Shown here one piece after another: positions 4,515-54,165 of a DNA stretch of 64,000 nucleotides. A model generated the notes under the pieces. That model ran no database searches, was not told the origin of the DNA, and was given only the letters and a program-made list of their open reading frames with translations. The first letter of the stretch is position 1, and each line of letters begins with the position of its first letter. Source of the stretch: an uncultured Verrucomicrobiota bacterium (GTDB taxonomy: Bacteria > Verrucomicrobiota > Kiritimatiellia > CAIKKV01 > CAIJXV01). The stretch is from the NCBI GenBank assembly GCA_964497135.1, contig CAZCDO010000001.1:239-64238 (forward strand), read 5' to 3'. A program made the position numbers and the translations under genes.

Positions 4515-4931
4515 GCAGGTCGACGAAGTGTAACCGCGTAAGTGTGGGACGAAGTGTTGGGAGAATGAGACACCAACAGCCAACATCCAATGGCCAACAG
4601 CCAACCCCCAACTTTTGGCCCTTCCTGATGTGGTCATTGAACGCTCAATGATTGACAGCGGAAGGGGAGCGACTAATGAGGCTTTGTAGAGGATTCGCGA
4701 TGTCGTAGGGCCTTCGCTCGTCGAAGGCCGGCTTGGAACAGGCGCGCCGACGAGCGGCGGCCCTACGGTTTGTGCGGGCATGCAACATCCGGGCTGGCAA
4801 CATCCCACTTGTGTTTTGGGTGCGGTTCGGGCACACTTTTTTTCGAAACCGATGATTTAACGGCATGGGGTGGGCCAGGGTTCCTGCCGCTGCAACCGCG
4901 ATTTTGGTGCTTTAAAATACAAGGAAAATCC

Positions 4932-20893: not shown

Positions 20894-20907
20894 TTGAAAC
20901 AGAACGA

Positions 20908-21300
20908 TTATCCCCGCCAGAGCAGGAGGCCGGCCACGTTGGTGAAATGAGAGTCACCGGTCACCAGAAAGGATCCACTTTCGGTCGCGTGGGCGGCGAG
21001 CCAGACATCGTTGATGGGGATCGGAGTGCCGGCTTTTCTAAGCCGGTGTTTGATGGTGCCGAAGATATCCGAGGTCTCCTGGGTGGCGGTCAGAATGCGG
21101 ACGGTGGGGCGCCGCAGAAAGTCCTCCAACTGCTCTCGGTTTTTCCGCTCTCTATCCCCGCCTTTAAAGCCGGCATACAGTTCGCCCAAAACAAAGACGG
21201 ACATAAAAACGGTATCGGCGCGGCCCAGCACGTCCAGCACCTCCCTGTCACCGCGGAGCAGGCTCATATAGGCATTGGTATCCAGAAGAACCTTTTTCAT
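20908..21300 (-). CDS. vapC: type II toxin-antitoxin system toxin, PIN-domain ribonuclease VapC
   Basis: MKKVLLDTNAYMSLL... with conserved acidic PIN residues (D at position 7, E ~40, D ~95 with LVTGDSHF). 130 aa. ATG (21300-21298) overlaps the TGA of the upstream antitoxin (ATGA). The ORF track extends to a TTG at 21306. Confidence 0.8.
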   Translation of the reverse strand: MKKVLLDTNAYMSLLRGDREVLDVLGRADTVFMSVFVLGELYAGFKGGDRERKNREQLEDFLRRPTVRILTATQETSDIFGTIKHRLRKAGTPIPINDVWLAAHATESGSFLVTGDSHFTNVAGLLLWRG

Positions 21301-21599
21301 TTCCAATCCTCCGGGTCGATGCGTTGGGTGTCAGCCACCCGGGCCTCAAACTCCCGTGCATCTTTCTCTTTCCAGGTTCCACAGAAACCGGCAAAATCAT
21401 CTCGATGCGGTGGAACAGCCGGCACCTTGATCCCCAATCCCTCCGCCAGGATCTGTTTTATGAGTTCATTCATGCTCAGGGATTGTTCCCGGGCGCGACG
21501 CTTGATCTGTGCCGCCAACTGCTCATCCAGGGCGTGGATCGTAAGTGATTTCACAATGACCTCTTTATGAACCGTTAATTGATTCATGTTGCGAACCAT
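21297..21599 (-). CDS. ribbon-helix-helix antitoxin (VapB/FitA-like)
   Basis: ~100 aa. RHH pattern: beta-strand SLTIHAL, helix DEQLAAQIKRRAREQ, helix SMNELIKQILAEGL. Stop TGA overlaps the vapC start. It appears as the C-terminal tail of a spurious 956-aa antisense ORF. Alternative start at 21587 (MNQLTV). Confidence 0.65.
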   Translation of the reverse strand: MVRNMNQLTVHKEVIVKSLTIHALDEQLAAQIKRRAREQSLSMNELIKQILAEGLGIKVPAVPPHRDDFAGFCGTWKEKDAREFEARVADTQRIDPEDWK

Positions 21600-21611
21600 A
21601 AAATAGAAAAT

Positions 21612-24188
21612 ATGAACCAAACGGTCAAACAAAATACGGCGGCTGACAGGGGGCGTTTTTTGCCCGGCCTCACGCCGCGCTCGCTGTTTGCCAGTCTGTT
21701 TTGCATGCTGTTGGCCGGGATCTATACGCAATACTCGATGGTGATCATTGCGGAAGGGAACCAGAGTCCTGAACAGGTTTTGCCGGTGCCGGCCATGGCC
21801 GTTTTGCTGTTGCTGGTGGGGGTCGTCGGCGCGCTCTATGCGCTGTTCAAGGTGCGCCTGTTGACGCGGGCGGAACTGCTCTGCGTGACGTTTACCCTGT
21901 TCTTTTCCGTTCCGCTGATGACCCAGGGCATGTGGCACCGGTTTGTCGGTCTGATCGCGGCGCCTCTGCGGACCTCCAGTTTCGACTACATCGATGCCTA
22001 CAACGAGAACCTGTGGCCGCACGGCCCCAACCTGCTGCAGGGAAGGCTGATCGAGGGGCGTGTCGAGACCTCCGGAAACGCGCCCGTCTGGGCCGAGCTG
22101 GAGTACGAGGAGGGGCGCCAGGCGCGGCTTCCCCGGCTGAAGAACACAACTCCGGACGAAGTGAGTTCGGTCTCGATCGTCGTGCCGGCGGCGGAGCAGG
22201 GGGATATCCGCGGGGTCGCCAATCCGCACCTGGTCAGCATCCTCGCGCGGGCCCAGGGCATGGAAGCCGAGAGCCTGATCTTCTGCCGGGTCTATGCGGA
22301 TGGAGCGGACTCGGGCAATGAACTGTTCTCCGAACGGAAGGCCGAGAAAAAAACCTATCTGCATAAGCGGGGCTTCGTGCGATTGGGCGCCTACGGCATG
22401 CCGCTGGCCGACCAGTGCCGGTCGACGCTGCGGGTGGAATTCGGTCTGCGGGGCCGGGGCGAAGTGATTCTGGCCGATCCGAAGGGAATGAGCGTCGCTG
22501 CCATCGAAGGGGCGTTCCGGGGACGCCCGATCATGGTGCAATCCGAATACGAGCGCTTGCCGCCCGCGGAGCGACCGCCGGGGATGATCGTCAAGCCGGA
22601 CCGGATGTGGAGTCTGGCCGGTCTGAAGTTTCTCGTCGGCGGCTACATCCCGTTGCGCGAATGGCTGAGACCGGCCCTGGTCTGGTCGGCTTTTGTGTTG
22701 CTGCTGGCGGCGGCGTGTTTCGCCGTGAACGTGATCATGCGCAAGAAATGGGCTGAGAGCGAGCGTTACCCCCTGCCGAACGTGCGCATTCCGCTGGCGT
22801 TGATCGGCGCCGAGGAACCCGGGGAGAGCGCGTTGGGCCGGGTGTGGAGCAATCCCTATATGTGGGCCGGCTTTGGGGTCGCGGTGTTCTGGGGCGGCCT
22901 GAAAGGCTGGCATGCGTTCAACCCGGCGGTTCCTGACCTGTCGATCGACATTGCGCTGGGGCCCTACGTTCAGAATCCCGTGTGGGGTGGCATGTTCAAT
23001 ACCTCGTTTTCGGTCAGTCTGTTCATTGTCAGCATCGCGGTGTTTTTCGAATTGAACGTGCTGATCAGCATGGTGCTGGGCTATTGGATCTGCCGGTCGG
23101 TATTCTGGATCGGACAGGTCACCAACCTTAAGGTAAACATTGGATTTCCCTGGCGCGATCAGCAGGCGGTCGGCGCTTACCTGGGATACTTTTTCATCGT
23201 GCTGGCCTTGTCGCGCAAGTACCTGGTGTCGGTATTCAAGGCGGCCGTGCGGGGCGATTCCCGCGAGGAGGGCGATACGCTGTCGAGCCGTGCGGCGGTC
23301 GGGCTCCTGTTGGGTTGTTGTCTCGGGGCTCTGATCTGGGGGCGGATGGTGGGGGCATCGCTGCTGAGCATGGGCGTGTATTTCGGTTTCCTGGTCATGC
23401 TGGGGTTCGTTACGTCGAAATTTCGCGCTGAATGCGGGTTGCCGTTCGGCTACTTCACCCCGTATAACGCGATGCTGATCGTCTCCCTGTGCGGCGGCCT
23501 GCCGGTGTTCGGTGCGGAGGGGATGCTGGTGGCGCTGTTGCTCTCCGGATTCCTTTCGGTGACGGTGTTTTTCCTGGTGCCGGGGGCGCAGTTCGAACTG
23601 ATCCAACTGGGCAAGCGGATGCGGATCCAGCCGCGGCACATCATCTATACGGCGCTCATCGGTATCCTGGGAGGTCTGTTCATCGGCGGGTGGGTGTTCC
23701 TCTCCAATGCCTATGCCTTTGGAGGTGACAACATCCGGTTTCAGTGGGCGTTCAACGGATTGAACTGGTTCATGCAGACCTTCCGCAGTGAATTGGGGAC
23801 CACGACCGCCGCCTGGCTGCGCGAATCCAGCCCCGCGGCGGTGGGCGGTACGGACTGGGGGGCGCGCATGATGGTCGCCTGGGGCGCGATCGCCATGATC
23901 CTGACGGTGCTCCGGCAACTTTTTTCGGGTTTTTGGTTTCATCCGATCGGGTTCATTCTGGGCAGTTCCAATATGATGGAAGGCGCCGTCTGGGGGAGCC
24001 TGCTGGTCGCGTGGGCCGTGCGGGGGCTGGTGCTCAAGGTGGGCGGGGCCACCAGCGTGAAGAATAAACTCCAGCCCTTTTTTGTCGGGGTGTTTGTCGG
24101 CTCGTTGGTCGTCCTCATGTTGTTCTCGGTGGTGAACAGTCTGAGCGTAACGCACGGGGCTACCCAACTTTACCAGGAGATTCCGTGA
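21612..24188 (+). CDS. polytopic integral membrane protein (~858 aa) with a ~300-aa extracytoplasmic loop; first gene of the ABC/M28-like operon; family not recognised
   Basis: >=10 strongly hydrophobic predicted TM segments, with Gly-rich helices in the C-terminal half. Start MNQTVKQ at 21612. Stop TGA (24186-24188) overlaps ATG of the next gene. Confidence 0.55.
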   Translation: MNQTVKQNTAADRGRFLPGLTPRSLFASLFCMLLAGIYTQYSMVIIAEGNQSPEQVLPVPAMAVLLLLVGVVGALYALFKVRLLTRAELLCVTFTLFFSVPLMTQGMWHRFVGLIAAPLRTSSFDYIDAYNENLWPHGPNLLQGRLIEGRVETSGNAPVWAELEYEEGRQARLPRLKNTTPDEVSSVSIVVPAAEQGDIRGVANPHLVSILARAQGMEAESLIFCRVYADGADSGNELFSERKAEKKTYLHKRGFVRLGAYGMPLADQCRSTLRVEFGLRGRGEVILADPKGMSVAAIEGAFRGRPIMVQSEYERLPPAERPPGMIVKPDRMWSLAGLKFLVGGYIPLREWLRPALVWSAFVLLLAAACFAVNVIMRKKWAESERYPLPNVRIPLALIGAEEPGESALGRVWSNPYMWAGFGVAVFWGGLKGWHAFNPAVPDLSIDIALGPYVQNPVWGGMFNTSFSVSLFIVSIAVFFELNVLISMVLGYWICRSVFWIGQVTNLKVNIGFPWRDQQAVGAYLGYFFIVLALSRKYLVSVFKAAVRGDSREEGDTLSSRAAVGLLLGCCLGALIWGRMVGASLLSMGVYFGFLVMLGFVTSKFRAECGLPFGYFTPYNAMLIVSLCGGLPVFGAEGMLVALLLSGFLSVTVFFLVPGAQFELIQLGKRMRIQPRHIIYTALIGILGGLFIGGWVFLSNAYAFGGDNIRFQWAFNGLNWFMQTFRSELGTTTAAWLRESSPAAVGGTDWGARMMVAWGAIAMILTVLRQLFSGFWFHPIGFILGSSNMMEGAVWGSLLVAWAVRGLVLKVGGATSVKNKLQPFFVGVFVGSLVVLMLFSVVNSLSVTHGATQLYQEIP

Positions 24189-27100
24189 TGACGGGGGACG
24201 GCTCCAACGGACGCGTTGCCCAGGCGATCGGGGCGGCGATATTTGCGGTGCTGACCGTGGTGACGGCCGCCGTCTTCCTCCGCGTTTTTGCGCCGCGATC
24301 GTACGTGCCGCCGACTGCCGGAGCCCCGTCCTACGATCGCACCGCGATGCAGCAGGCGCTGACTCGAGAGGCGGTCCGGGACCAATTGGCGGCCATCGAA
24401 CAGTGCGGTTCGCGCTCGCCGGGCCAGCCGGGCCACGCCGCCTGCGGCCGGCTGATCGCCGAACGCTACGCGCAGGCGGGACTGGAGGTGTTCGAGCAGG
24501 AACTCGACGCGGCCTATCCCGTCTGCTCCGAGGCGCGCCTGACCGGCGACGGCGCGCCGCTGGAGGTGGCGCTCTGGCCGGCCCCGCCTAATCACGTTCA
24601 GCCGATGACGACACCGGAGTCGGGTTTGCAGGGCGAACTGATGTTGATCACCGAGGAGAGCGTGCGCGCCGCCGGCCGTTTCGACGACCAGATCGCGCTG
24701 GTCGACCTGGCCCGGCCGCTATTCAAGGAACTGGGAATCAACCCGGCTCGCTTCGCCGACCTGGGATTCAAGGCGCTGATCGTCGGACATTCCGGAGGGT
24801 TCGAACAGATTCCCTGGCGCAATCTGAAGAGCCTGCGGCTGGGTCTGCCGCTCAACTATGTGCGGCTGATCGCGGACGAGCGCATCTTCGCCTATGCCGG
24901 ACGTCGCGTCCGGCTGGATGTCCGCACCGCCTATACGAATGTTCCCGTTCGCAACATCGTGGGCGTTCTGCATGGACCCCGCGCGGCGCGCGGCGCGGTG
25001 ATCATCAGCGCCGCTTACGACGGGTTTACAGCGTTGCCGGATCTGGCCTCGGGATCGGTGCAGGCTTTGCAACTGGCCCTGCAACTGCGGTTGCTCGACG
25101 GCCTGGCGCCCCATCGTGAAACCCTCCAGCGCGATGTCATCTGGGTGTCGTGCGGCAGCGACTACATGGCCCAGAACAGCCTGAATCAACTCCTGTCCGC
25201 CATCGGTCGTCCCGGAGAAGCGGCCGTTGCCAAGGCCCGCCTGGACGCCGATCTGCGCGAGCAGACGGAGAAAGCCGGCGCCCTGACGTCCGTGGTGGCG
25301 CTTTTCTCCGATGAACGGTTCGGGCGAGAGGCGGGTCCGAGCGGGACCGCCCTGGACGGGATCGATGCCGAAGCCCGGCTGATTTTCGACGAAGAGTTCC
25401 GGACCGTTCTCAGGCAGCGGGTCTTCGATGCCGGTGAACGCCTGCTCCAGGCGCAGATCGCGTTCGAGCATAACCCGAAGGATCTGACCGGTCCCGCCTA
25501 TCGCGCCTTTCGGGCCGCCAAACAGGATTTTGACCGGCTGAATACGGCATCGGCGTTGCCGGTCCGGCGTTTCCTGGAGCGCCCTTCGGATGGCTATGAT
25601 CTTCGGGCGGCTCTGCTGGCACGGTTCCAGGTGTTGAGGGGCTACCACGACACCCGGGTCCGGCGGTTGCGACAGGAACTGGCGCTGAATGCCCTGATGG
25701 CGGGTTACGATGAAGTGCTGGTCCTGGCGCCCAGCCTGAACCCGGCGGCCGTTCAGCCGAAACGCGAAATTCTCAGTTTCTCCGGGGGATCGGGAATCCC
25801 GCATGCCGAAGCTGCGGATGCCTTCCGCCGCCTGCTTCAGGAGGCGGTATTCACACTCGGCCTGCAGGATCGGGTGAGCATCGATTTCCGCGGCGCCCGG
25901 CACGGCGACGCCATGGCCGCGTTTCTGTCCGACCTGCCGCTCCAATCCCAGCCCTGGTCGGTCATGTCCTATCCGGCGTTCGCACTGATCAGTCCGCGGA
26001 ACGACTATGCGCATTTCATTTCGCCGGTTCCCTCGCCCCTGATTACGAACCTCACCAGCCTGGCCGGGTCCCTGCAGGTGCTGGGCGAGGCGACGCTGTC
26101 GGCGGCCCATGGCGCCGGACGGTTTCCCGCGCTCCAGCGGAATTCAACGTATGCAACGCGGGGGACGGTTTATGCCGCCGGGATCGGTAATGCCGTGGTC
26201 CCGAATTTTTCCGTGGCCGGGGCGCTGGTGTTCGCCAAAGCGGAGGCCGGTCCGGCCCCTCTCGGGTTCCAGCGACGTCCGATCTTCTTCGCGGATCCGT
26301 ATGGCCATTTTGATCACCCGGTGATGACGATGCCGTTTCCGAACTGGGCGGACACTTTTATCCCGGAGGCGGCCCACTATGGCCCGGGCGGCACGATTGA
26401 CTATTACAAGGACAGCGGACTGACGGCGCAGAATATTTATAAATCGGATATCCTGCCCGGCGACGGGTCACCCGTCAATCTGATCCTTTACCGCGGCACA
26501 GCGGTGTCGATCCTCAATCGAGTCAATCCGCAGACCATGCGCAGTTTTACGGGGGCGGCTTTTCTGCGTCCCTCCGGCTTGACGCCGTTTGCCAGCACCG
26601 CCAAAATCGTCAACGACGATGGTATTTGCGATTTCATCGATCCCAAGGCCCGGTTCTTCGTCACCCTGAAGGCGGGCTCGCCGGATAACGAGCAGGTGGC
26701 CGAGACGCGCGCGTTCTGCCTGAACACCCGCGCCCCCGGTTTCGTTCCGGACCCCGCGATCGAGATCGATGGCCCCGGCTATCTGGCGCAGGATACCCCC
26801 GTGGTGCGGGAGATCGCCGCGGAATCCGCCTCCTCGATGGCCCTCCTGGCCGCCAAACGCATCCGGTTGCAGGAACCCTACGGGATGGTGGACGAGATGA
26901 CGACCGCGTTCCAGGAGCGGAGTCTGCAACTGGCGGCGGAGGCCGGGCGTGCCGACCGGCCGGCGTTGACGCGATTAGGCGAGTTTCGGCAGGCCATGAC
27001 CTACCTGATCCTGAATCACCCGGTCATCCGGGGGTCGATCGCCGAAGCCATCTGGGGCATCCTCTGGTATATGGGGTTGCTCGTGCCGTTTGTCTTCTTC

Positions 27101-29191
27101 TTCGAGAAGCTCATGTTCGGATTCACCGATATCCGTAAACAGTTGTTGGCGGAGGGCGTCATCTTCCTGGTGGTGTTCGGGTTGCTCTGGTTTTTGCATC
27201 CGGCCTTCAAGATGATCCGGTCCTCGGTCATGATTCTTTTGGGGTTCGTCATCATTCTGATCTCGGGCGGCATCACCCTGTTGCTGTCGTCCAAATTCCG
27301 CGAAAACCTCGATGCCTTGAAACGGCTTCAGGGCTCGGACAAGGGCGCTGAGGTGAACAAGGCGGGAATCCTGATGACGGCGTTCATGCTCGGGTTGAAT
27401 AACATGCACCGTCGCAAGGTGCGCACGGGACTGACCTGTGCCACGCTGGTGCTGATGACTTTCGTCATGATCTGTTTTACCTCCGTGCGCAGCAACATCG
27501 TCGACCAGGAAAAGGCCCTGTCCAAGGCCGCCTACCAGGGATTGCTGGTCAAGGAGGCGCGATTCAAGCCAATCGCCGCCAGCGAGATTTCAGCCCTCGA
27601 CAGCCGGTTTGGCGAGATGTTCACGGTCAACGAGCGGGTGGCCCTGGTGGGACGGCGCGACTGGAATCTGGCGCAACTGGTGCCGCCGGAGGTGGAGGTG
27701 GCCGTCGGCGAGGCGCCGGAGATCAGCCGCCAGACCGCGAAGTCGGTCCTGTTGCTGCGGCAAACCGAGCCCCTGCGCGCCAGCCTGCGCCTGCTCACCA
27801 CGAACGGCTGGTTTTCGGCGGCGCAGGCTGCGCAAACCCAGGGACCCTATCCCGTGCTGTTGCCGGACACGATGGCCGAAAATCTCGGGCTGACCGTCGC
27901 GGCGGTGGATACGGGTTCTGTGAAAGTGCGCATCAATGGGGTGGTTTTTGCGGTGCACGGGGTGTTCGAATCATCCTCTCTATCGCAGGCGGGCGATCTC
28001 GATGGTGACAACCTGTTACCGTTCGATACGGAGGGACTGGTCAACCCGGAGATCAGCGACAGCCAGGTGCTGGCCGAACGCGAGGACCCGCGCGTTGCGG
28101 CGGGGCAAACCGTGATAGCGCTGGTGGACGCGTTTCCCGTTCAGGTTAACGGGGCCTGGCGGACGTTGTCCGTGGCGGTTGACATGGGCCAGACCGGGTT
28201 TGCGTCCGCCAAGCGTGAAATCGCCACGTATCTGGAGCAGACCGGGCGGGAAACGTGCTACGGCCTCGACGGTACCGCCTATATCGGGCGCCGCGCCCGC
28301 GCCAAAGCGGTGGGCGGTCTGGCCGATCTGTTGATACCGTTGATCATTGCCGCGCTGACCGTCCTCAATACCATGAAAGGTTCGGTTTACGAACGGCGCG
28401 ATGAAATCTTCGTCTATAACGCCGTCGGCATTGCGCCGCGCTATGTTTTTTTCATGTTCATCGCCGAGGCCCTGGTGTATGCGGTGGTCGGCGCGGTACT
28501 CGGCTACCTGCTCAGTCAGGGGACGGGGCGGGTTCTGACCGCGATGGGGTGGACCGGCGGATTAAATATGAATTTCACCTCGCTATCCACGGTCTATGCC
28601 TCGCTGGCCATCGCGGCGGCCACGCTGTTATCCACCTACTTCCCGGCGAAATCGGCCATGGAAATCGCCAAGCCGGCGGAGAAGGCCGGCTGGGAACTAC
28701 CCCCGGCCGAAGCGGATGAGATGACGTTCGCCCTGCCGTTCACGTTTACGCATTTCGATCGCATTGCCGTGATGGGCTTTTTCCACCAGTATTTCGTCAA
28801 CCACGGGGAGGGCAGTGCCGGGCCGTTTTTTGCCTCCGAGCCGCGGCTGACGTTGTGCGATCGGCGCGACCCCCTGGCGGACGACGGCTACATTCCGAGC
28901 ATCGAGGTGCCCGTCTGGCTCAAACCGTTCGATCTGGGCGTGTCCCAACGCATCGTGATCGAACTGGCCACGGATGCCGACACCGGCGAATACATCGCCA
29001 CGATGCGCCTCCTGCGCCTCACCGGGACGAAGGAGGCCTGGTTGCGTCTGAACGCACCCCTGGTGAGCCGCATTCGTCGCCATTTTCTGCATTGGCGGGC
29101 CGTGTCCGACGATTTGAAACAGGAATTCCATGGCCGGGCCCGGGAACTTTTGGAAGCGCACGTGGCCGAGGGGGGGCGTCTGCATGGCTAA
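24188..29191 (+). CDS. fusion protein: N-terminal signal-anchored M28-peptidase-like (probably non-catalytic) domain + multi-TM linker + MacB/FtsX-type ABC permease (TM1, periplasmic domain, FtsX 3-TM domain) + C-terminal tail
   Basis: M28-like block NIVGVLHGPRAARGAVIISAAYDGFTALPDLASGS, where canonical AHYDS has become AAYDG. Probable EE region reads CGSDY. MacB-like TM1 GLNNMHRRKVRTGLTCATLVLMTFVMI. FtsX domain LIPLIIAALTVLNTMKGSVYERRDEIFVYNAVGIAPRYVFFMFIAEALVYAVVGAVLGYLLS. Confidence 0.65.
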   Translation: MTGDGSNGRVAQAIGAAIFAVLTVVTAAVFLRVFAPRSYVPPTAGAPSYDRTAMQQALTREAVRDQLAAIEQCGSRSPGQPGHAACGRLIAERYAQAGLEVFEQELDAAYPVCSEARLTGDGAPLEVALWPAPPNHVQPMTTPESGLQGELMLITEESVRAAGRFDDQIALVDLARPLFKELGINPARFADLGFKALIVGHSGGFEQIPWRNLKSLRLGLPLNYVRLIADERIFAYAGRRVRLDVRTAYTNVPVRNIVGVLHGPRAARGAVIISAAYDGFTALPDLASGSVQALQLALQLRLLDGLAPHRETLQRDVIWVSCGSDYMAQNSLNQLLSAIGRPGEAAVAKARLDADLREQTEKAGALTSVVALFSDERFGREAGPSGTALDGIDAEARLIFDEEFRTVLRQRVFDAGERLLQAQIAFEHNPKDLTGPAYRAFRAAKQDFDRLNTASALPVRRFLERPSDGYDLRAALLARFQVLRGYHDTRVRRLRQELALNALMAGYDEVLVLAPSLNPAAVQPKREILSFSGGSGIPHAEAADAFRRLLQEAVFTLGLQDRVSIDFRGARHGDAMAAFLSDLPLQSQPWSVMSYPAFALISPRNDYAHFISPVPSPLITNLTSLAGSLQVLGEATLSAAHGAGRFPALQRNSTYATRGTVYAAGIGNAVVPNFSVAGALVFAKAEAGPAPLGFQRRPIFFADPYGHFDHPVMTMPFPNWADTFIPEAAHYGPGGTIDYYKDSGLTAQNIYKSDILPGDGSPVNLILYRGTAVSILNRVNPQTMRSFTGAAFLRPSGLTPFASTAKIVNDDGICDFIDPKARFFVTLKAGSPDNEQVAETRAFCLNTRAPGFVPDPAIEIDGPGYLAQDTPVVREIAAESASSMALLAAKRIRLQEPYGMVDEMTTAFQERSLQLAAEAGRADRPALTRLGEFRQAMTYLILNHPVIRGSIAEAIWGILWYMGLLVPFVFFFEKLMFGFTDIRKQLLAEGVIFLVVFGLLWFLHPAFKMIRSSVMILLGFVIILISGGITLLLSSKFRENLDALKRLQGSDKGAEVNKAGILMTAFMLGLNNMHRRKVRTGLTCATLVLMTFVMICFTSVRSNIVDQEKALSKAAYQGLLVKEARFKPIAASEISALDSRFGEMFTVNERVALVGRRDWNLAQLVPPEVEVAVGEAPEISRQTAKSVLLLRQTEPLRASLRLLTTNGWFSAAQAAQTQGPYPVLLPDTMAENLGLTVAAVDTGSVKVRINGVVFAVHGVFESSSLSQAGDLDGDNLLPFDTEGLVNPEISDSQVLAEREDPRVAAGQTVIALVDAFPVQVNGAWRTLSVAVDMGQTGFASAKREIATYLEQTGRETCYGLDGTAYIGRRARAKAVGGLADLLIPLIIAALTVLNTMKGSVYERRDEIFVYNAVGIAPRYVFFMFIAEALVYAVVGAVLGYLLSQGTGRVLTAMGWTGGLNMNFTSLSTVYASLAIAAATLLSTYFPAKSAMEIAKPAEKAGWELPPAEADEMTFALPFTFTHFDRIAVMGFFHQYFVNHGEGSAGPFFASEPRLTLCDRRDPLADDGYIPSIEVPVWLKPFDLGVSQRIVIELATDADTGEYIATMRLLRLTGTKEAWLRLNAPLVSRIRRHFLHWRAVSDDLKQEFHGRARELLEAHVAEGGRLHG

Positions 29192-31280
29192 AATCGACCA
29201 GGAATTGGAACAGTACCGCAACCTGCTGGCGACCCCGGACACCTATGAGGAGGGGTTCGGCTGGATGACGGTCGCCGGCATCCTGTTCTGCGGGTTCATC
29301 ATGATGCCCGGCGCCATCTACCTCGGGTTGATGACCGGCGGCAGTATGGGCAGTGCAGCCACCTGGGTGACGGTGATTTTGTTCAGCGAGGTCACCCGGC
29401 GCGCGATGAAGACCCTCAGCAAGGGACACCTGGTCGTCCTCCTGCATGCCGCGGGCGTCATGATGGCCGGCAGTGCCCTGTTTCCCGGCGGACCCTTCGG
29501 CGGGCTGGTTTACCGGGCCTTCCTGGTGACCTCCGATGCCGCCCGCGATATGGGGATGCGCGATGCCTTCCCGGCCTGGTGGTGTCCCAAGCCCGACAGT
29601 CCGGCCATCGCCGAACGGTTGTTGCTGCACAGCGACTGGCTCCAGCCGATCGCCCTGCTGGCGTTCATCGCCGTCATCGGGTTGGTCAAAAAATACACGC
29701 TCGGCTATTTCTTTTTCCGCCTTTGCAGCGATGTCGAGCGGTTGCCCTTTCCGCTGGCGCCCATCAGCGCGCAGGGCGCTCTGGCGCTGTCGGATTCCAC
29801 CCGGAAGGAGGAGGACCTGGAGGCCGCTGAGAAGCAGGTTGACGAGACGGGCCGCAAGGTCTTTTCCAAGTGGCGGATTTTTTCGCTGGGTTCGTTGATC
29901 GGCATCGCCTTCGGGATCGTGCAGGTCGGTGTGCCGGCGATTACCGGCCTGATGCTGGACAAGCCGGTGTTTCTGATTCCGCAACCCTTTGTCGATTTGA
30001 CCACGCTGACCGAGAGCCTGTTGCCGGCGACGCCCACCGGCCTGGTGATCGATCCCGGCATCATCCTGATCGGCATGGTTTTGCCGTTTTGGGCGGTCAT
30101 CGGCACGTTCAGTGCCATTGTCGTGACGTTGGTGGCCAATCCCGTCCTGCAGATGGGCAATGTCCTGGCCCAGTGGCAGCCGGGGATGAACACGATCAAC
30201 ACCCAGTTTGTGAACTCGGTTGATTTCTGGATGAGTTTCGGGTTCGGCACCTCGGCGGCGATCGCGCTGATCAGTATTTATTCGACCGTGCGGGACGTGG
30301 TGCGGCGCGCCCGCCAGGCGCGCCGCGCGCGGGACTCCGGGCAGCTCGCCATCGGGCGCCAGGCCGAGATCGGCAGTCTCTGGAAAACGCCCGATATCGG
30401 CCGCGGCGACTACCCGATGTGGCTGGCGCTGACCGGCTATGTCCTGGCGGCCGGAGCCATGGTGATCGTGTGTGACCGGTTGGTTCCGGGCATCACCGGA
30501 TTCCTGCTGGTATTCGCCTTCCTCTACAATCCCTTTGTATCCTATGTCAACGCGCGCCTGCTGGGGTTGGTCGGGCAACAGGTCGATATCCCCTTTGTGC
30601 GGGAAGGGGCCTTTATTCTCTCCGGTTGCAAGACGCTGGACATCTGGCTGGCGCCGGTGCCGATCGAAAACTACGGCAGCATGGCGCAGTCCTTCCGCGT
30701 CAATGAACTCACCGGGGTGCGGTTCCGCTCGCTGATGAAGGCCGACCTGGTCGCCTTGCCCGCCCTGTTCCTGATGTCGCTGTTGTTCTGGGCCTTCATT
30801 TGGAAATCCAATGCGGTGCCCTCCGACATCTACCCGGCCGCGCGCCTCAACTGGGAACTGGCGGCCAAGCAGAACACCCTCCTGTATTCGGCCACTTTTT
30901 CTCCGGACACCGCCGGCGGCGTCCGCGATATCACCCATTTTGCCGACACCGAATTCGCCAAGGCGTTGCATCCGAAGTTCATCGCGGCCGGCAGCGTGCT
31001 GACGTTGCTGTTGTTCGGAATCTTCAGCGCGTTCAGTCTGCCCACGCTCTTTATCTACGGGATGATCCGCGGGTTCGGCCAGCTTCCGCATGTGATGCTG
31101 CTCGAAATTGCCGGGGCGCTCCTGGGGCGGTATGTGCTCCAGAAGAAGTTCGGATCGGGCCCGTTTTTGCGAATGGCCCCGGCCCTGCTGGCGGGGTATT
31201 ACACCGGCGTCGGCCTGATCGGTATGGCCACGATCGCCATGAACCTCATAAAAAATGCCGTTTCCAGCGCACCCTTTTAG
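29184..31280 (+). CDS. polytopic integral membrane protein (~698 aa), transporter-like (OPT-like topology possible); family not recognised
   Basis: ~14-16 hydrophobic predicted TM segments. Start MAKIDQELEQ at ATG 29184 overlaps the upstream stop (29189-29191). Confidence 0.55.
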   Translation: MAKIDQELEQYRNLLATPDTYEEGFGWMTVAGILFCGFIMMPGAIYLGLMTGGSMGSAATWVTVILFSEVTRRAMKTLSKGHLVVLLHAAGVMMAGSALFPGGPFGGLVYRAFLVTSDAARDMGMRDAFPAWWCPKPDSPAIAERLLLHSDWLQPIALLAFIAVIGLVKKYTLGYFFFRLCSDVERLPFPLAPISAQGALALSDSTRKEEDLEAAEKQVDETGRKVFSKWRIFSLGSLIGIAFGIVQVGVPAITGLMLDKPVFLIPQPFVDLTTLTESLLPATPTGLVIDPGIILIGMVLPFWAVIGTFSAIVVTLVANPVLQMGNVLAQWQPGMNTINTQFVNSVDFWMSFGFGTSAAIALISIYSTVRDVVRRARQARRARDSGQLAIGRQAEIGSLWKTPDIGRGDYPMWLALTGYVLAAGAMVIVCDRLVPGITGFLLVFAFLYNPFVSYVNARLLGLVGQQVDIPFVREGAFILSGCKTLDIWLAPVPIENYGSMAQSFRVNELTGVRFRSLMKADLVALPALFLMSLLFWAFIWKSNAVPSDIYPAARLNWELAAKQNTLLYSATFSPDTAGGVRDITHFADTEFAKALHPKFIAAGSVLTLLLFGIFSAFSLPTLFIYGMIRGFGQLPHVMLLEIAGALLGRYVLQKKFGSGPFLRMAPALLAGYYTGVGLIGMATIAMNLIKNAVSSAPF

Positions 31281-31289
31281 GTGCCGCCC

Positions 31290-32330
31290 ATGAGCCAACC
31301 CATGCCAGACCAGATTAGCCTGCCGTTGCGAATCGCCTTTGAGGTGGTGGTGCAGGGGTTGCGCATCCGCTTGGGCCGCTCCCTCGTCACCCTGACCGGG
31401 GTGACCTGCGGCATCGCTTTCCTGATGTCGATTCTGACCGGCCAGCTCGTCAAAAAGGGCGTGGCGGCCGAGGATGCCTGCCGGGAGGAGGTCGCCCGCA
31501 TGGGGAGTTTCATCCGGTCCGACCTGCCGAACTTGCGCGGCAAGGCGATCGGCCTGATCGGGAGCGGGCGCCTCGACGAGGTCGAGACGCGGGTGCTCGA
31601 ACGTCTGCGAGCTGACGGTGACAGTATCCTGCTGATGGCCGACGGTCTGGCCCCCGAACCGCGGCGGCCGATGGCGGGGTGTGAAGTCGTGGAGGGCGGG
31701 CAACTGACCGAGCGGGCCGCCGTGATCTTCGTGATGGGCGACGGTCCGGTGCCGGCGTTCGACTGGCGGCGGTTTTTCGATCGGTCGCGGAATGCCATGG
31801 CGGCGTACACCCGGACCGGGGGCGCGAGGTTGGCCACGGACCGGGAGGAGCGGTGGGTCCGCTTGTCGAGGGACTGGCCGCCGGACGAAATTGCGCGCAA
31901 GGCGCTACAGGCGCGGCAGGCGCGTTTTCGCGGAATCTGGGTCGGTGTGATTTCGCTGCTGGTGACGGTCATCGGCATTTCCAACGCCATGCTGATGTCG
32001 GTCACGGAACGCTTCCGCGAGATCGGCACGATGAAATGTTTGGGGGCTTTGTCGGGTTTTGTCACGCGCCTCTTCGTGCTGGAGGCGTCCCTGCTGGGGT
32101 TCGTGGGCGGACTGGCGGGCGCGGTGGCGGGTGCGGTCTTCGCCGTGAGCGTATACACCTTGACCTACGGGGCCGGCCTCGTTTTTGCGTCGCTGCCGGT
32201 GGCGTCGATCCTGTCGTTCGGCGCAGTCAGCCTGGTCGCGGGGATTCTGTTGTCGATTGTGGCGGCGCTCTATCCGGCCCGCGTGGCGGCATCCATGGTG
32301 CCGGCGACGGCCCTGAGGTCAACGTTATGA
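31290..32330 (+). CDS. FtsX-family (MacB/LolC-type) ABC transporter permease
   Basis: TM1 (LVTLTGVTCGIAFLMSILTG), ~180-aa periplasmic domain, and a C-terminal FtsX 3-TM module (GISNAMLMSVTERFREIGTMKCLGA...LYPARVAASMVPATALR). ATG 10 nt after upstream stop. Confidence 0.7.
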   Translation: MSQPMPDQISLPLRIAFEVVVQGLRIRLGRSLVTLTGVTCGIAFLMSILTGQLVKKGVAAEDACREEVARMGSFIRSDLPNLRGKAIGLIGSGRLDEVETRVLERLRADGDSILLMADGLAPEPRRPMAGCEVVEGGQLTERAAVIFVMGDGPVPAFDWRRFFDRSRNAMAAYTRTGGARLATDREERWVRLSRDWPPDEIARKALQARQARFRGIWVGVISLLVTVIGISNAMLMSVTERFREIGTMKCLGALSGFVTRLFVLEASLLGFVGGLAGAVAGAVFAVSVYTLTYGAGLVFASLPVASILSFGAVSLVAGILLSIVAALYPARVAASMVPATALRSTL

Positions 32331-33124
32331 AGAAGGACCCGATGGAACCCATTGACCCCCGCCGTTTTCAAGCGCTCTTCAATCCGCCCGCCGGTCAGGG
32401 AGCCCCCGTTGTGATCCGCGGTGTCGACATCCGCAAGGTGTATCGCCGGGGCACCCAGGAGACACACGCCTTGCGCGGCGCTACGCTGGACGTCTACCGC
32501 GGCGAATACCTGTCGATCATGGGCCCCTCCGGATCGGGAAAAACGACGTTGTTCAACGCGATTGGCGCCCTGGTCAAGCCGACCTCGGGCAAGGTCTATA
32601 TCGATCAGGTCGATATTGCGCAACTCGACACCGAGGAATTGGCGTGGCTTCGATGCCGGAAGATCGGCTACGTGTTCCAGACCTACAATCTGATCCAGGT
32701 GATGACCTGTTTGGAAAATGTGACCCTGCCGATGAGTTTTGCCGGCCTGAGCGGCGAGGAGGCGCGCGAAAAAGGCGTCCGGATTTTGAAAATGGTGGGG
32801 CTCAGCCATCGCGCCCTGCACAAGCCGGCGGAACTGTCGGGCGGTCAGCAGCAGCGCGTCGCGATCGCGCGGGCGCTGGCCAATTCGCCGGCCATCATTC
32901 TCGCCGATGAACCCACGGCGAATCTGGACCAGACGACTGGGCAGGAGATCATCGACCTGTTCACCCGTTTGCAGCGGGACCTGGGCGTGACCATTATTTC
33001 CGCCACGCACGATCTCAAGATGCTTCAGGCTTCAAACCGCATCCTGTGGATCGAGGACGGCTGCATTGTGAAATCGGCCCGCCCCGAGGAGATCAATTTC
33101 GCCACCGATGAATTCGGGCATTGA
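32327..33124 (+). CDS. ABC transporter ATP-binding protein (MacB/LolD-type ATPase), copy 1
   Basis: Walker A GPSGSGKTT. Signature LSGGQQQRVAIARAL. Walker B ILADEPT. ATG overlaps upstream TGA (ATGA). Confidence 0.85.
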   Translation: MKKDPMEPIDPRRFQALFNPPAGQGAPVVIRGVDIRKVYRRGTQETHALRGATLDVYRGEYLSIMGPSGSGKTTLFNAIGALVKPTSGKVYIDQVDIAQLDTEELAWLRCRKIGYVFQTYNLIQVMTCLENVTLPMSFAGLSGEEAREKGVRILKMVGLSHRALHKPAELSGGQQQRVAIARALANSPAIILADEPTANLDQTTGQEIIDLFTRLQRDLGVTIISATHDLKMLQASNRILWIEDGCIVKSARPEEINFATDEFGH

Positions 33125-33134
33125 GAGATCAATC

Positions 33135-33869
33135 ATGGATACGATCATTCGAACCGAGAACGTGAAAAAACGTTATGTGACCGGCGACCAGGAATTGTGG
33201 GCGTTGAAGGGGATCGATCTCGATATCGGCCGCGGCGAATTTCTCTCCATCATGGGACCTTCCGGATCGGGCAAGTCGACGCTGTTCAACCAGATCGGCG
33301 CGCTCGACGTGCCCACCGAGGGGCGCGTGCTGTTCGAGGGGCAGTCCGTGTTCGACATGACCGAAAAACAGCAGGCGTGGTTCCGGTGCAACCGCATCGG
33401 GTACATCTTCCAGACGTTCAACCTGATCCAGGTGATGACCGCGTTGCAGAACGTGACCCTGCCCATGGTCTTCCAGGGGACCCCCCGGGAGGATGCCGTC
33501 CGGCGCGGCACGGCCATTCTGGAACGCGTGGGACTCGGCCATCGCCTGCATAACAAACCGTTCGAGCTCTCCGGCGGCCAGCAACAGCGCGTGGCTGTGG
33601 CCCGCGCGCTGGCCAATACGCCCAGTGTGGTCCTCGCCGATGAACCCACGGGTAACTTGGACACGAAGACCGGCGCCGAGATCATCGAACTGCTCAAGGA
33701 GCTGAACCGCGCGGAAGGGGTGACCGTGATTTGTTCCACCCACGATCCGAAGATGCTGCGCAGTTCCGATCGGATTTGCTGGATGCTCGACGGGCGGCTC
33801 GACAAAATCATCCAGCAGGCCGATTTTTCGTTGGCGGCCATGAAGCAGGACACCCAGGGCCGTGAGTGA
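33135..33869 (+). CDS. ABC transporter ATP-binding protein (MacB/LolD-type ATPase), copy 2 (paralog)
   Basis: Walker A GPSGSGKST. Signature LSGGQQQRVAVARAL. Walker B VLADEPT. ~50-60% identical to copy 1 by eye. Confidence 0.85.
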   Translation: MDTIIRTENVKKRYVTGDQELWALKGIDLDIGRGEFLSIMGPSGSGKSTLFNQIGALDVPTEGRVLFEGQSVFDMTEKQQAWFRCNRIGYIFQTFNLIQVMTALQNVTLPMVFQGTPREDAVRRGTAILERVGLGHRLHNKPFELSGGQQQRVAVARALANTPSVVLADEPTGNLDTKTGAEIIELLKELNRAEGVTVICSTHDPKMLRSSDRICWMLDGRLDKIIQQADFSLAAMKQDTQGRE

Positions 33870-34281
33870 TCCCGTCTCCAGACCGGTGGCGGATGGGACG
33901 GCGGGGCCGGTCGCGGCCGACCTGGCCCAGTTGTTAAACGGGGTGCCCTATCTGAATCCGGCCGTTGAAACCCTCCACGATCCCCAGCGGGGATGTGCGC
34001 TCTCGTGGAAGAGTGAGTCGGGGAACCGGCGCGGCTGGCGGGCGCTCCTGATGGGGCCGGTGCGGCGCCGGCGACTGGAACTCGACGACCTGGGTCGCCG
34101 TACGGTTGAACTGTGCGACGGCCGCCGCAGGGTGGGGGAAATTGCCGCCCAGCTCGCCGCCGAACACCAGGTTGAACTCGGGGTCATGCAACGCGCCACC
34201 CTGGCCTTTCTCGCGGAACTCGTCCGTCGCAACGCCGCCCAGATTGTGGATGATTCGAAGGAGATTCGGACCGGGTCATAA
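33862..34281 (+). CDS. PqqD-family (RiPP-recognition-element-like) peptide-binding/chaperone protein
   Basis: 139-aa ORF, GTG start overlapping the ATPase stop. PqqD-like core RRRLELDDLGRRTVELCDGRRRVGEIAAQLAAEHQV...ATLAFLAELVRRN (winged-helix wHTH with a 3-strand sheet pattern). Assignment by eye. Confidence 0.5.
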   Translation: MSDPVSRPVADGTAGPVAADLAQLLNGVPYLNPAVETLHDPQRGCALSWKSESGNRRGWRALLMGPVRRRRLELDDLGRRTVELCDGRRRVGEIAAQLAAEHQVELGVMQRATLAFLAELVRRNAAQIVDDSKEIRTGS

Positions 34282-34414
34282 AGTGACAATAGATATCAGA
34301 ATTTGGTCATTGAGTGTTCGAATGCTTTGCGGGATTATTATGAATTTCCGCTTTTGAGTGGGCGCTGCGAATGGCCGCCGGCGATCCATCACCGCAAACA
34401 AAGAACGGAATGCC

Positions 34415-54145: not shown

Positions 54146-54165
54146 ACACAGATAAGGTAATTCCC

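Follow-up and report, generated by a model that had tools for sequence, protein, structure and literature searches.

Seven genes in a 64,000-nucleotide stretch of DNA from an uncultured Verrucomicrobiota bacterium (hereafter the window) form one conserved operon, in which an ABC module of the type VII (MacB/LolCDE-like) kind is encoded together with two large polytopic membrane proteins of the OPT/YSL fold. Of the functions considered, we tentatively favour the capture and import of nutrients, probably sugar chains. No description of a MacB/Lol-like motor combined with OPT/YSL proteins was found in the literature, and not a single paper for DUF6785 or DUF6784, in agreement with a sequence-only reading of this DNA that had proposed the system as a candidate undescribed one.

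Seven overlapping genes form one conserved and modular operon

The genes, here g1 to g7, occupy positions 21612-34281 of the + strand (Table 1), and a check of ORFs and junctions bore out the claim that each overlaps or nearly abuts the next. The g1/g2 junction is a TGATG, in which the TGA of g1 (24186-24188) overlaps the ATG of g2 (24188). Overlaps of 8 nt join g2 (TAA 29189-29191) to g3 (ATG 29184) and g6 (TGA 33867-33869) to g7 (GTG 33862), while g4 and g5 share an ATGA at 32327. The two remaining junctions vary with the start codon: g3 ends at 31280, leaving no gap before a GTG at 31281 and 9 nt before an ATG at 31290 for g4, and g6 overlaps g5 by 17 nt from ATG 33108 or lies 10 nt from it with ATG 33135. 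A + strand ORF at 20872-21570 was rejected as spurious, its space being occupied by an antisense vapBC-type toxin-antitoxin pair.

The gene-neighbourhood search that had been called for recovered the order g1-g2-g3-g4-g5-(PqqD)-g6 in the genomes of dozens of species, which belong to Lentisphaerota, Kiritimatiellia, Verrucomicrobiota, Planctomycetota, Sumerlaeota and Armatimonadota, confirming a real operon that is kept as one unit. Among loci with enough sequence, drawn from several phyla, g2 comes after g1 in 62 of 64, and the next genes follow in 43 of 50 (g3), 38 of 47 (g4) and 37 of 44 (g5), an arrangement far beyond chance. Flanks differ among carriers, and the operon is therefore a self-contained module. 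It is exceedingly improbable that these are unrelated housekeeping transporters, such as an OPT peptide transporter and a MacB-like pump, lying side by side by chance: each family is common alone and able to work independently, but in several phyla the genes stay tightly coupled and in the same order between different flanks, and a core trio of dead-M28::FtsX fusion, OPT-like protein and DUF6785 protein recurs even in a distant variant with identities of 25-43%.

Loci with only g1 and g2 exist, as do sets with only g3-g6, and several paralogous g1+g2 pairs are found per genome. Homologues have a median identity to their window counterparts of 34% in the N-terminal part of g2, 43% for g1, 59% for g3 and 73% for g5, and g2 paralogues within a genome are 35-60% identical in their periplasmic parts and 64-89% in their TM parts. 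g1 and g2 make up a variable half of the system, and g3-g6 a constant half. This modularity was absent from the sequence-only reading, as were the CBM-like domain of g1 and the position of the PqqD gene between the ATPase genes, both described below.

Table 1. Genes of the operon and segments of the g2 protein, with positions in the window
Feature	Position	Strand	Remark
g1: polytopic membrane protein, 858 aa, DUF6785 + DUF6784	21612..24188	+	variable half
g2: M28-like::MacB/FtsX permease fusion, 1667 aa	24188..29191	+	variable half
g2 residues about 50-650: PA-domain-containing M28 aminopeptidase fold	24335..26137	+	helical insert about 345-505
g2 residues about 651-835: beta-rich periplasmic domain	26138..26692	+	AF2 secondary structure, pLDDT
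g2 residues about 875-1100: extra TM helices, FtsX amphipathic helix and TM1	26810..27487	+	hydropathy
g2 residues about 1101-1375: predicted extracytoplasmic domain between FtsX TM1 and TM2, possibly MacB_PCD-like	27488..28312	+	topology
g2 residues about 1376-1500: FtsX C-terminal three-TM domain	28313..28687	+	Pfam FtsX E 7.8e-13
g2 residues 1501-1667: conserved cytoplasmic C-terminal domain	28688..29191	+	alignment motifs
g3: OPT-family polytopic membrane protein, 698 aa	29184..31280	+	constant half
g4: FtsX-type permease, 346 aa	31290..32330	+	alternative GTG start 31281
g5: ABC ATPase, LolD/MacB/FtsE type	32327..33124	+	
g6: second ABC ATPase	33108..33869	+	alternative ATG start 33135
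g7: PqqD/RRE-like protein, 139 aa, cytoplasmic	33862..34281	+	

Two OPT/YSL-fold proteins accompany the ABC genes

Profile searches identified both of the large polytopic proteins noticed earlier. g3 belongs to Pfam OPT (PF03169; E 5e-9, 35.8 bits where the gathering score is 25.8), whereas g1 matches DUF6785 (E 3e-62) and DUF6784 (E 9e-16) instead of OPT; both proteins have the OPT/YSL fold. At sequence level g1 is 13% identical to YS1, and hhalign did not see homology between g1 and g3 (probability 6.6%). g3 is the most conserved membrane subunit, its relatives fall into at least 1027 clusters, identity is 57% or more throughout the top 120, and its homologues are labelled 'peptide transporter' or 'OPT/YSL family transporter' by NCBI.

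The OPT/YSL family (TC 2.A.67) is represented by barley YS1 (PDB 7wsr), a homodimeric proton-coupled elevator importer (PMC9691689). By analogy with this homodimer, the two OPT-fold proteins of the window system would likely form a heterodimer. Known family members are stand-alone proton symporters, unlike g1 and g3, whose genes show translational coupling to those of an ABC engine; we know of no OPT protein that needs an ABC partner. A further difference is a beta-sandwich insert in g1 (residues about 150-295), which resembles a CBM-like jelly-roll and is presumably periplasmic; this fold is generic, being matched by ephrin receptors, MAM domains and Cry toxins too.

A dead M28 domain is fused to an FtsX-type permease

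From N to C terminus, g2 consists of a TM helix, a dead PA/M28 domain with a helical insert, a beta-rich domain, extra TM helices, the MacB/FtsX permease module and a cytoplasmic C-terminal domain, and its family comprises 1318 50%-identity clusters at E≤1e-3, or 248 at E≤1e-30. In the window protein the M28 domain is without a Pfam match; the M28 assignment is confirmed by the homologue P0018 and by 22 of 30 distant family members, the fold being M28 with a PA insert, and the degenerate M28::MacB-permease fusion first noticed from the sequence is real. Compared with 2ek8, all four alignable catalytic or zinc positions are lost (His to Ala, the bridging Asp to Val, Glu-Glu to Asp-Tyr), the last two zinc ligands of the H, D, E, D, H set not being mapped, and the site is degenerate in distant members as well (YYD, GH). 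Loss of these four positions makes processing by this domain unlikely, and the periplasmic peptide or lipoprotein processing that the sequence-only reading had suggested is not supported. Neighbours of the M28-like fold include the non-catalytic proteins TfR, nicastrin and GAA1, which are, respectively, a ligand-binding receptor, a gamma-secretase component and a GPI transamidase component. Like g2, these carry a membrane-anchored M28(/PA)-like ectodomain that has lost its peptidase chemistry; unlike g2, they are eukaryotic and have unrelated membrane parts; the likeness seen is one of fold.

The beta-rich domain gave no match in a Pfam search, nor did the cytoplasmic C-terminal domain, which also lacked a PDB sequence match. 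Within the permease module, the Pfam FtsX match spans residues 1385-1492, and this domain matches MacB (5gko, E 3e-8), YtrF and LolC in the PDB; the predicted topology fits the large extracytoplasmic (Porter/Sabre, MacB_PCD) domain that type VII permeases carry after TM1, and this putative domain matches MacB_PCD weakly in the window protein (E 0.014) and significantly in 7 of 30 distant members (best E 1.3e-9). The segment with the extra TM helices is 66% identical across the family, as against 38-47% in the periplasmic parts, and is a candidate interface with partner subunits. It is included in a match of residues 965-1513 to the PADLOC profile PDLC01991 'CARF_LolE_TM' ('CARF_m8--CARF_LolE_TM', E 6e-37); the same residues match 'CARF_m8--CARF_Beta-galactosidase_LolE_TM' (E 7e-19), and the extended TM module is therefore also present in other giant fusion proteins. 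The surroundings of the operon contain neither CARF nor CRISPR nor other defence genes.

Coupling of a MacB-fold engine to a periplasmic enzyme-fold domain is shared with YbbAP-TesA and FtsEX-EnvC. FtsEX acts through EnvC, a catalytically dead hydrolase-fold partner comparable to the g2 domain, and BceAB has membrane partners (PMC12646458). The operon could accordingly be read as a module for regulation or mechanosensing on the lines of FtsEX-EnvC or BceAB-BceS, where ATP switches the dead-enzyme ectodomain, which would activate a separate periplasmic hydrolase, or where flux is sensed and signalled; the C-terminal cytoplasmic domain of g2 would serve as ligand sensor. Both the dead M28 domain and the PADLOC match fit such a module, as does a sigma54 enhancer-binding protein upstream of g3-g6 in two loci (L089 and L092). 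We nevertheless regard it as very unlikely: the PADLOC match stops short of the g2 C-terminal domain and so gives no evidence there of a CARF (Rossmann-like, ligand-binding) domain, FtsX equivalog scores are far below the NCBIfam cut-offs, there is no conserved hydrolase or kinase partner gene, and two large, highly conserved OPT-fold proteins would be left without a role. The enzyme-fold domain of g2 also differs from those of YbbAP-TesA and FtsEX-EnvC in being M28/PA rather than LytM or SGNH and in being fused to its permease, and for the polytopic OPT-fold partners no precedent was found.

A putative asymmetric type VII engine distinct from LolCDE

Matches to Pfam and NCBIfam substantiated the second FtsX permease and the two distinct LolD/MacB-type ATPases that had been read from the sequence. 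The FtsX C-terminal TM domain is found in both g2 and g4; g4 (Pfam FtsX, E 3.1e-13) has a small extracytoplasmic domain by topology, and would pair with the FtsX module of g2 as a heterodimer. g5 and g6 are 56% identical, match Pfam ABC_tran and, as best NCBIfam models, LolD and MacB, also FtsE and DevA, and keep intact Walker A, signature, Walker B with the catalytic E, and H-loop, as ATPases of the MacB/LolD/FtsE clade. g7, correctly recognised before as PqqD/RRE-like, scores 38.1 bits (E 1.9e-9) against a Pfam PqqD (PF05402) gathering score of 23.4, with neither a TM helix nor a signal peptide in topology prediction. Its homologues usually sit between the two ATPase genes, as in at least 20 loci, which suggests that the PqqD-like protein is a motor subunit or regulator and not a RiPP chaperone.

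In type VII systems, ATP binding and hydrolysis move the extracytoplasmic domains, and substrate is not moved through the FtsX helices. The work is done on the periplasmic side, and partner proteins set the function (PMC12646458). Like LolCDE, the window system has two different FtsX-type permeases and LolD-type ATPases, with no membrane-fusion protein or TolC; the predicted topology of its permeases, with an extracytoplasmic domain between the first two TM helices, would also agree with LolCDE. It is nonetheless not LolCDE: it has two ATPase genes rather than one LolD, the g2 permease is fused to ~1100 extra residues (dead PA/M28, beta-rich domain, TM helices), the operon also brings in two OPT-fold partners along with a PqqD-like protein, and equivalog scores are far from the cut-offs (g4 51 bits against 362 for lolCE; g5 and g6 217-232 bits against 308 for LolD). 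LolA- and LolB-like genes are absent from the window and from nine annotated homologous contexts, at the level of the loci. A MacAB-TolC tripartite pump was likewise rejected: as claimed earlier, no HlyD or TolC (OEP) family member was found among the large ORFs of the window or in the nine contexts, and the ATPases are separate genes.

The asymmetric two-permease build, which recalls LolC/LolE, raises the question of an envelope extraction or export machine, in which the two FtsX permeases, as a heterodimer, would extract a molecule that is hydrophobic or lipid-anchored (lipoprotein, glycolipid or lipid-linked glycan) from the inner membrane, as in LolCDE or YbbAP-TesA, and deliver it to the periplasmic domains fused to the permease. 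The OPT-fold proteins would then be scaffolds or the route for a cytoplasmic precursor, and the function possibly surface display or sorting of degradative enzymes. Characterised type VII systems all act outward or periplasmically, and many extract lipid-like substrates (PMC12646458); moreover, neighbours are often large secreted or lipoprotein-type enzymes, such as a GH43-like protein with a lipoprotein-like signal in L088 and secreted proteins of 2595 aa and 1370 aa in the window. We consider this machine unlikely, given that the OPT/YSL fold is known from importers only (PMC9691689), that exit-duct, glycosyltransferase and flippase genes, like LolA-like chaperones, are absent from every annotated context, that local regulators are catabolic-type sugar sensors, and that several paralogous g1+g2 pairs per genome suit many substrates over one housekeeping cargo.

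Neighbouring genes point to uptake of nutrients, probably glycans

The context is catabolic in several lineages. A GntR/LacI-type regulator (GntR/Peripla_BP_3) lies directly upstream of the operon in six loci (Sumerlaeota/BRC1 and L091), with GH130 between regulator and g1 in three of the six and a GH43-like gene after the operon in two. Further glycoside hydrolases adjoin the operon in L004 (GH38 and GH63), in L093 (GH29, 11 bp downstream) and in the window (GH20, with DUF4832, downstream). GH130, GH29, GH38 and GH20 are without signal peptides and would therefore need an imported substrate, and no other transporter was found in the Sumerlaeota array L088, in L091 or in L093. With sugar-type regulators and catabolic glycoside hydrolases as conserved neighbours, we favour uptake of nutrients, probably glycans, over the peptide or lipoprotein export suggested by the sequence-only reading, which also sits poorly with the importer fold of g1 and g3. 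Flanks are mixed, and among 118 upstream ORFs (~33 loci) the commonest families are not glycoside hydrolases but GFO_IDH_MocA, aminotransferases and M20 peptidases. Carrier genomes are CAZyme-rich, and some adjacency of glycoside hydrolases is expected by chance.

OPT, M28/PA and PqqD/RRE are all peptide-handling families, which leaves some probability to a peptide substrate. The operon might thus encode an importer of oligopeptides or glycopeptides, with OPT as carrier, the dead M28/PA domain recognising free N-termini and PqqD binding peptide in the cytoplasm, or else an exporter or immunity device for a PqqD-chaperoned ribosomal peptide. The NCBI naming of g3 homologues is consistent with this, as are M20 peptidases, aminotransferases and S41 proteases upstream in some loci, an S8 peptidase adjoining L094, and good scores of g5 and g6 against DarD and bacteriocin-exporter ATPase models. 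That likeness is, however, generic for the entire MacB/LolD clade, and the M28 metal site is destroyed. RiPP precursors, radical-SAM enzymes, cyclases and leader peptidases are absent from the nine annotated contexts; unlike PqqD domains that act as RiPP recognition elements, g7 has no precursor peptide or maturase beside it in the window flanks, L004, L088, L090 or L093, and the PqqD gene itself is absent from several otherwise complete operons (L091, L094). As the conserved regulators and enzymes are sugar-related rather than peptide-related, we hold a peptide system to be quite improbable.

A proposed model for ATP-driven nutrient import

In the import model that we tentatively favour, the seven gene products would form one modular inner-membrane machine. 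Its engine would be an asymmetric type VII module in which g4 pairs with the FtsX segment of g2, g5 and g6 supply the power as an ATPase heterodimer, and the small PqqD-like g7 works on the cytoplasmic side. Receptor-like domains, namely the dead PA/M28 and beta-rich domains of g2 and the CBM-like beta-sandwich of g1, would catch an oligomeric nutrient on the periplasmic side; an oligosaccharide or a fragment derived from glycans is the most likely candidate, a peptide or glycopeptide a less likely one. The ATP cycle would move these extracytoplasmic domains, as in other type VII systems, with no substrate passing through the FtsX helices, and the motor would hand the nutrient to the OPT/YSL-fold g1 and g3, which would take it across the membrane. 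Gene content, folds, the dead active site, conservation, modularity and gene contexts are observed; we infer the direction of transport, the nature of the substrate, the coupling of the motor to the OPT-fold proteins and the physical complex. The role of PqqD is left unexplained by this model, and we know of no type VII ABC system that takes part in import.

The g1+g2 pair may represent a fast-evolving specificity half and g3-g6 a conserved engine half, such that further g1+g2 pairs at other sites of a genome may draw on a single g3-g6 engine. A bolder version, which we regard as rather doubtful, is that a type VII mechanotransducer is obligatorily coupled to OPT/YSL elevator translocators, ATP-driven receptor domains feeding or gating subunits of secondary-transporter fold, and that with exchangeable g1+g2 pairs it serves as a major route of oligosaccharide or glycan-fragment uptake in PVC-type bacteria, which to our knowledge lack SusCD-style systems. 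If true, this would constitute a new class of transport machine and an uptake route in Lentisphaerota, Kiritimatiellia, Verrucomicrobiota, Planctomycetota and Sumerlaeota.

Layout and boundaries of the operon

ORF calling identified seven genes on the + strand, encoding in turn a DUF6785/DUF6784 membrane protein (g1), a fusion of a dead M28 domain to a MacB/FtsX permease (g2), an OPT protein (g3), an FtsX permease (g4), two LolD/MacB-type ABC ATPases (g5 and g6) and a PqqD-like protein (g7). All junctions from g1 to g7 had been described in the sequence-only reading as overlapping or no more than 10 nt apart, and this holds at each of the six. Upstream, the opposite strand carries a vapBC-type toxin-antitoxin pair, which divides the operon from co-directional genes for a LamG/PKD protein of 2595 aa and for an FAD_oxidored protein; the cassette ends 24 bp before the g1 ATG, and the operon promoter must overlap it. 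Downstream, a gap of 130 bp is followed by a 1370-aa secreted protein and then by GH20 and DUF4874/DUF4832 genes. A + strand ORF at 20872-21570 was considered as an eighth gene and rejected as an artefact: it has no homologues and no Pfam match, and the minus strand here codes for the PIN toxin and RHH antitoxin. Rfam returned no regulatory RNA in 20700-21700, upstream of g1, and scans for consensus promoters and terminators across the operon gave counts at or below the shuffled-sequence level, and hence were uninformative.

Neither of the giant secreted proteins flanking the operon is conserved beside it in other genomes. Elsewhere in the window there are three paralogous FAD-dependent oxidoreductases of PF12831, of which two, at 875 and 1006 aa, are unusually long. 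Genes for glycan degradation (heparinase II/III, GH20, DUF4874/DUF4832, beta-helix proteins and a melibiase-like gene) are scattered among them. An ORF that matches part of glycoside hydrolase family 1 is probably the remnant of a truncated gene.

Coordinates of the operon, its junctions, the segments of g2 and other features (window positions unless a locus is named)
Feature	Position	Strand	Remarks
Operon, g1 to g7	21612-34281	+	
g1/g2 junction	24186-24190	+	TGATG
g2/g3 junction	ATG 29184, TAA 29189-29191	+	8-nt overlap
g3/g4 junction	GTG 31281 or ATG 31290	+	abutting with GTG, 9-nt gap with ATG
g4/g5 junction	32327	+	ATGA
g5/g6 junction	ATG 33108 or ATG 33135	+	17-nt overlap or 10-nt gap, respectively
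g6/g7 junction	GTG 33862	+	8-nt overlap
PIN (VapC) toxin	20911-21300	-	E 1.7e-15
FitA-like RHH antitoxin	21300-21587	-	coupled to PIN toxin by ATGA
g2, beta-rich domain	residues ~651-835		
g2, extra TM helix cluster	residues 875-1100		strongly conserved, 66% identity across family
g2, MacB_PCD-like ectodomain, then FtsX helices			
g2, cytoplasmic domain	C-terminus		167 residues, conserved
g2, segment matched by PADLOC	27080-28726	+	residues 965-1513
Heparinase II/III	4770-6971		
Giant secreted protein	10478-18265	+	2595 aa; DUF2341, LamG, PKD
Giant secreted protein	34412-38524	+	1370 aa; no Pfam match
PF12831 paralogue	18266-20893	+	
PF12831 paralogue	53989-55935	+	
PF12831 paralogue	55972-58992	-	
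Partial glycoside hydrolase family 1 ORF	51099-51770	+	matches C-terminal ~40% only (profile 272-452 of 453)
Distant variant operon	L001 10001-21642		
23S_rRNA_IVP gene	L094 12151-12504		four-helix bundle
Sigma54 enhancer-binding protein	L089 8521-9900		FHA domain
Sigma54 enhancer-binding protein	L092 8525-9901		FHA domain

Protein families and predicted anatomy

The family calls made from sequence for the operon genes were each recovered by Pfam and NCBIfam, including those for the two large polytopic proteins, of which g1 matched DUF6785 (E 3e-62) and DUF6784, and g3 matched OPT with a score exceeding the gathering score. FtsX was found in g2 (residues 1385-1492) and g4, PqqD in g7, and ABC_tran in g5 and g6, which are paralogues (56% identity) whose best named NCBIfam models are LolD, MacB and FtsE, all well under the equivalog cut-offs. 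Both ATPases retain intact Walker A, Walker B (plus Glu), signature and H-loop motifs. The large ORFs of the window hold no member of the HlyD or TolC families, as had been proposed.

The AlphaFold2 model of g1 is very confident (pLDDT 92, pTM 0.92), and the positive-inside rule would place its insert in the periplasm. From this model and the placement of the insert, DUF6785/DUF6784 is predicted to be an OPT/YSL-fold family bearing a CBM-like ectodomain. The link between g1 and g3 is based on the fold of the former and the Pfam match of the latter: BLASTP detected no homology between them, and hhalign gave 422 colinear columns with an ER(Y/L)P(L/F)P motif in both at a probability of 6.6% (E 0.0055), which is no more than suggestive of sequence homology. 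Sequence searches with g3 and with the g1 profile found no solved relatives.

The model of g2 residues 1-1100 has a pLDDT of 76 and is good across residues 50-830. Pfam did not detect M28 in g2 of the window; it did so in a homologue 30% identical to it (P0018) and, among 30 members of the family that are more distant, in 22. When g2 was aligned by way of P0018 to the active enzyme 2ek8, the first zinc His was replaced by Ala, the bridging Asp by Val and the Glu-Glu pair by Asp-Tyr, and the site is also degenerate in the family consensus and in distant members. The proposed fusion of a degenerate M28-like domain to a permease is thereby upheld, and the loss of zinc and catalytic residues across the family argues that a peptidase role is very unlikely. 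The C-terminal domain of g2 gave no Pfam match and no significant PDB match.

Two PADLOC profiles, 'CARF_m8--CARF_LolE_TM' (E 6e-37) and 'CARF_m8--CARF_Beta-galactosidase_LolE_TM' (E 7e-19), matched the transmembrane module of g2, ending ahead of the C-terminal domain. These matches hint that giant fusion proteins bearing other ectodomains, and possibly a cytoplasmic ligand sensor, form sister families, and we treat a CARF-like sensor in g2 as a lead. Membership of an anti-phage defence system was considered and rejected, as PADLOC returned generic ABC-ATPase matches and the 'CARF_LolE_TM' module match only, and there are no defence neighbours.

Conservation and modularity

A word-indexed search returned 20 close g2 clusters, mostly from Lentisphaerae MAGs, and exhaustive HMMER searching extended the family to 1318 clusters at 50% identity (E<=1e-3; 248 at E<=1e-30), mostly of 1600-1760 aa. 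There are at least 154 clusters of g1-type proteins and at least 1027 90%-identity clusters in the g3 family, the top 120 being at least 57% identical. Scanning one genome per species, we found 132 g1 relatives in Lentisphaerota, Kiritimatiellia, Verrucomicrobiota, Planctomycetota, Sumerlaeota/BRC1, Armatimonadota and Fibrobacterota; all 80 of the 132 records that were listed are titled as MAG or uncultured bacterium, and the homologous loci come from metagenome assemblies in every case.

Gene-neighbourhood comparison, proposed with the sequence-only reading, found gene order kept across several phyla: tblastn with the window proteins recovered g1-g2-g3-g4-g5-g6 throughout, and among loci with room g2 followed g1 in 62 of 64, g3 came next in 43/50, g4 in 38/47 and g5 in 37/44. 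That these genes adjoin by chance is scarcely credible. Since the flanks differ completely from locus to locus, the operon is a self-contained unit. The PqqD gene is conserved as well, lying between the two ATPase genes in at least 20 loci and after g6 in the window's clade and L004; it is missing from L091, L094 and loci holding g3-g6 only. In L094, whose operon is otherwise intact, a 23S_rRNA_IVP gene separates g3 from g4.

Six loci carry g1 and g2 only (L008, L011, L017, L053, L073 and L086), one of which, L008, shares its MAG (CAZQKI01) with a complete operon, L078. Two carry g3-g4-g5-g6 only (L089 and L092), each preceded by a sigma54 enhancer-binding protein. These regulators lie directly upstream of g3 and are 88% identical to each other, which suggests sigma54-dependent control of this part of the system in both genomes. 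Median identity to the window proteins is 73% for g5, 59% for g3, 54% for the C-terminal half of g2, 46% for g4, 43% for g1 and 34% for the N-terminal half of g2, and g2 paralogues within one genome are 35-60% identical in their periplasmic parts and 64-89% in their TM parts. Such a pattern is consistent with a variable half that faces the substrate (g1 and g2) and a constant engine half (g3-g6), and we infer that the two can combine in trans.

A distant variant, L001, comprises a gene for a dead-M28::FtsX protein of 1442 aa, one resembling g3 and a short DUF6785 gene lacking the beta-sandwich insert; no ATPase is adjacent, and TPR and ExbB-ExbD-ExbD-TonB genes come next, making a tie to outer-membrane TonB-dependent uptake possible. 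Another, L005, has a g2-like gene, DUF2200, a g3-like gene and ATPases. The invariant core is thus an OPT fold coupled with an FtsX-type ABC module.

Genomic context and proposed function

The 118 upstream ORFs form a heterogeneous list without a universal neighbour, and conserved neighbours are limited to within-lineage synteny. Downstream flanks were covered for about nine loci, and the CAZyme adjacencies below are given as raw occurrences. In six loci, from Sumerlaeota/BRC1 and L091, a GntR/Peripla_BP_3 regulator of the sugar-sensor type lies directly upstream, with GH130 between it and g1 in three and a GH43-like gene directly downstream in two. A GH29 fucosidase begins 11 bp past g6 in L093, GH38 and GH63 adjoin the operon in L004, and GH20 and DUF4832 lie downstream in the window. 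The GH130, GH29, GH38 and GH20 proteins of these contexts lack signal peptides, and therefore their substrate must reach the cytoplasm; the arrays of L088, L091 and L093 contain no transporter besides the operon.

Type VII ABC engines work on the periplasmic side, with function defined by partner proteins (PMC12646458), and proteins of the OPT/YSL type act as dimers that import by a proton-coupled elevator mechanism (PMC9691689). Combining this behaviour with the catabolic contexts, we tentatively propose a capture-and-feed importer as the most economical model, in which the g2/g4/g5/g6 engine would move receptor-like ectodomains and g1 and g3 would carry the substrate, probably an oligosaccharide, across the membrane. 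A Lol/YbbAP-like device for extraction or export would accord with the outward action of all known type VII systems, but is unlikely given catabolic regulators and the absence, from the annotated contexts, of any gene for a chaperone, an adaptor, an exit duct or biosynthesis. Import of peptides, or export of a RiPP, draws on the peptide-handling character of the OPT, M28 and PqqD families and on peptidases among some neighbours; with neither precursor nor maturase in those contexts, a dead metal site and operons that do without PqqD, we judge it rather improbable. We also doubt, more strongly, that the operon encodes a regulatory module resembling FtsEX or BceAB, and reserve the remaining probability for functions outside these readings.

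Significance

The gene set had been put forward as a machine not recognised as described, and the literature searched (FtsX/OPT/PqqD in Planctomycetes, type VII/MacB/OPT and PVC oligosaccharide uptake) likewise yielded no description of it and no mention of DUF6785 or DUF6784; the sole earlier trace of the system is the name under which PADLOC lists a profile matching the TM module of g2. Judged by defining features, the system is none of LolCDE, MacAB-TolC and FtsEX, and is best filed among type VII ABC systems, where OPT-fold partners are unprecedented. We know of no cooperation between the two transporter superfamilies that this widespread and conserved machine unites. If their coupling is mechanistic, it would constitute a new transporter class, and whatever the substrate, the conserved architecture is defined well enough to be a target of genetics and cryo-EM.

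Bacteria of the PVC superphylum and Sumerlaeota play a major part in breaking down complex glycans, in guts as well as in sediments and oceans, and how the breakdown products pass their inner membrane is poorly understood. If the importer model is true, the type VII ABC systems would gain a fifth functional type, and DUF6785 and DUF6784 their first function; there would also be a bacterial case of a dead M28/PA domain acting as a receptor, in parallel to transferrin receptor, nicastrin and GAA1, and a new marker of substrate-specific utilisation loci in these phyla.
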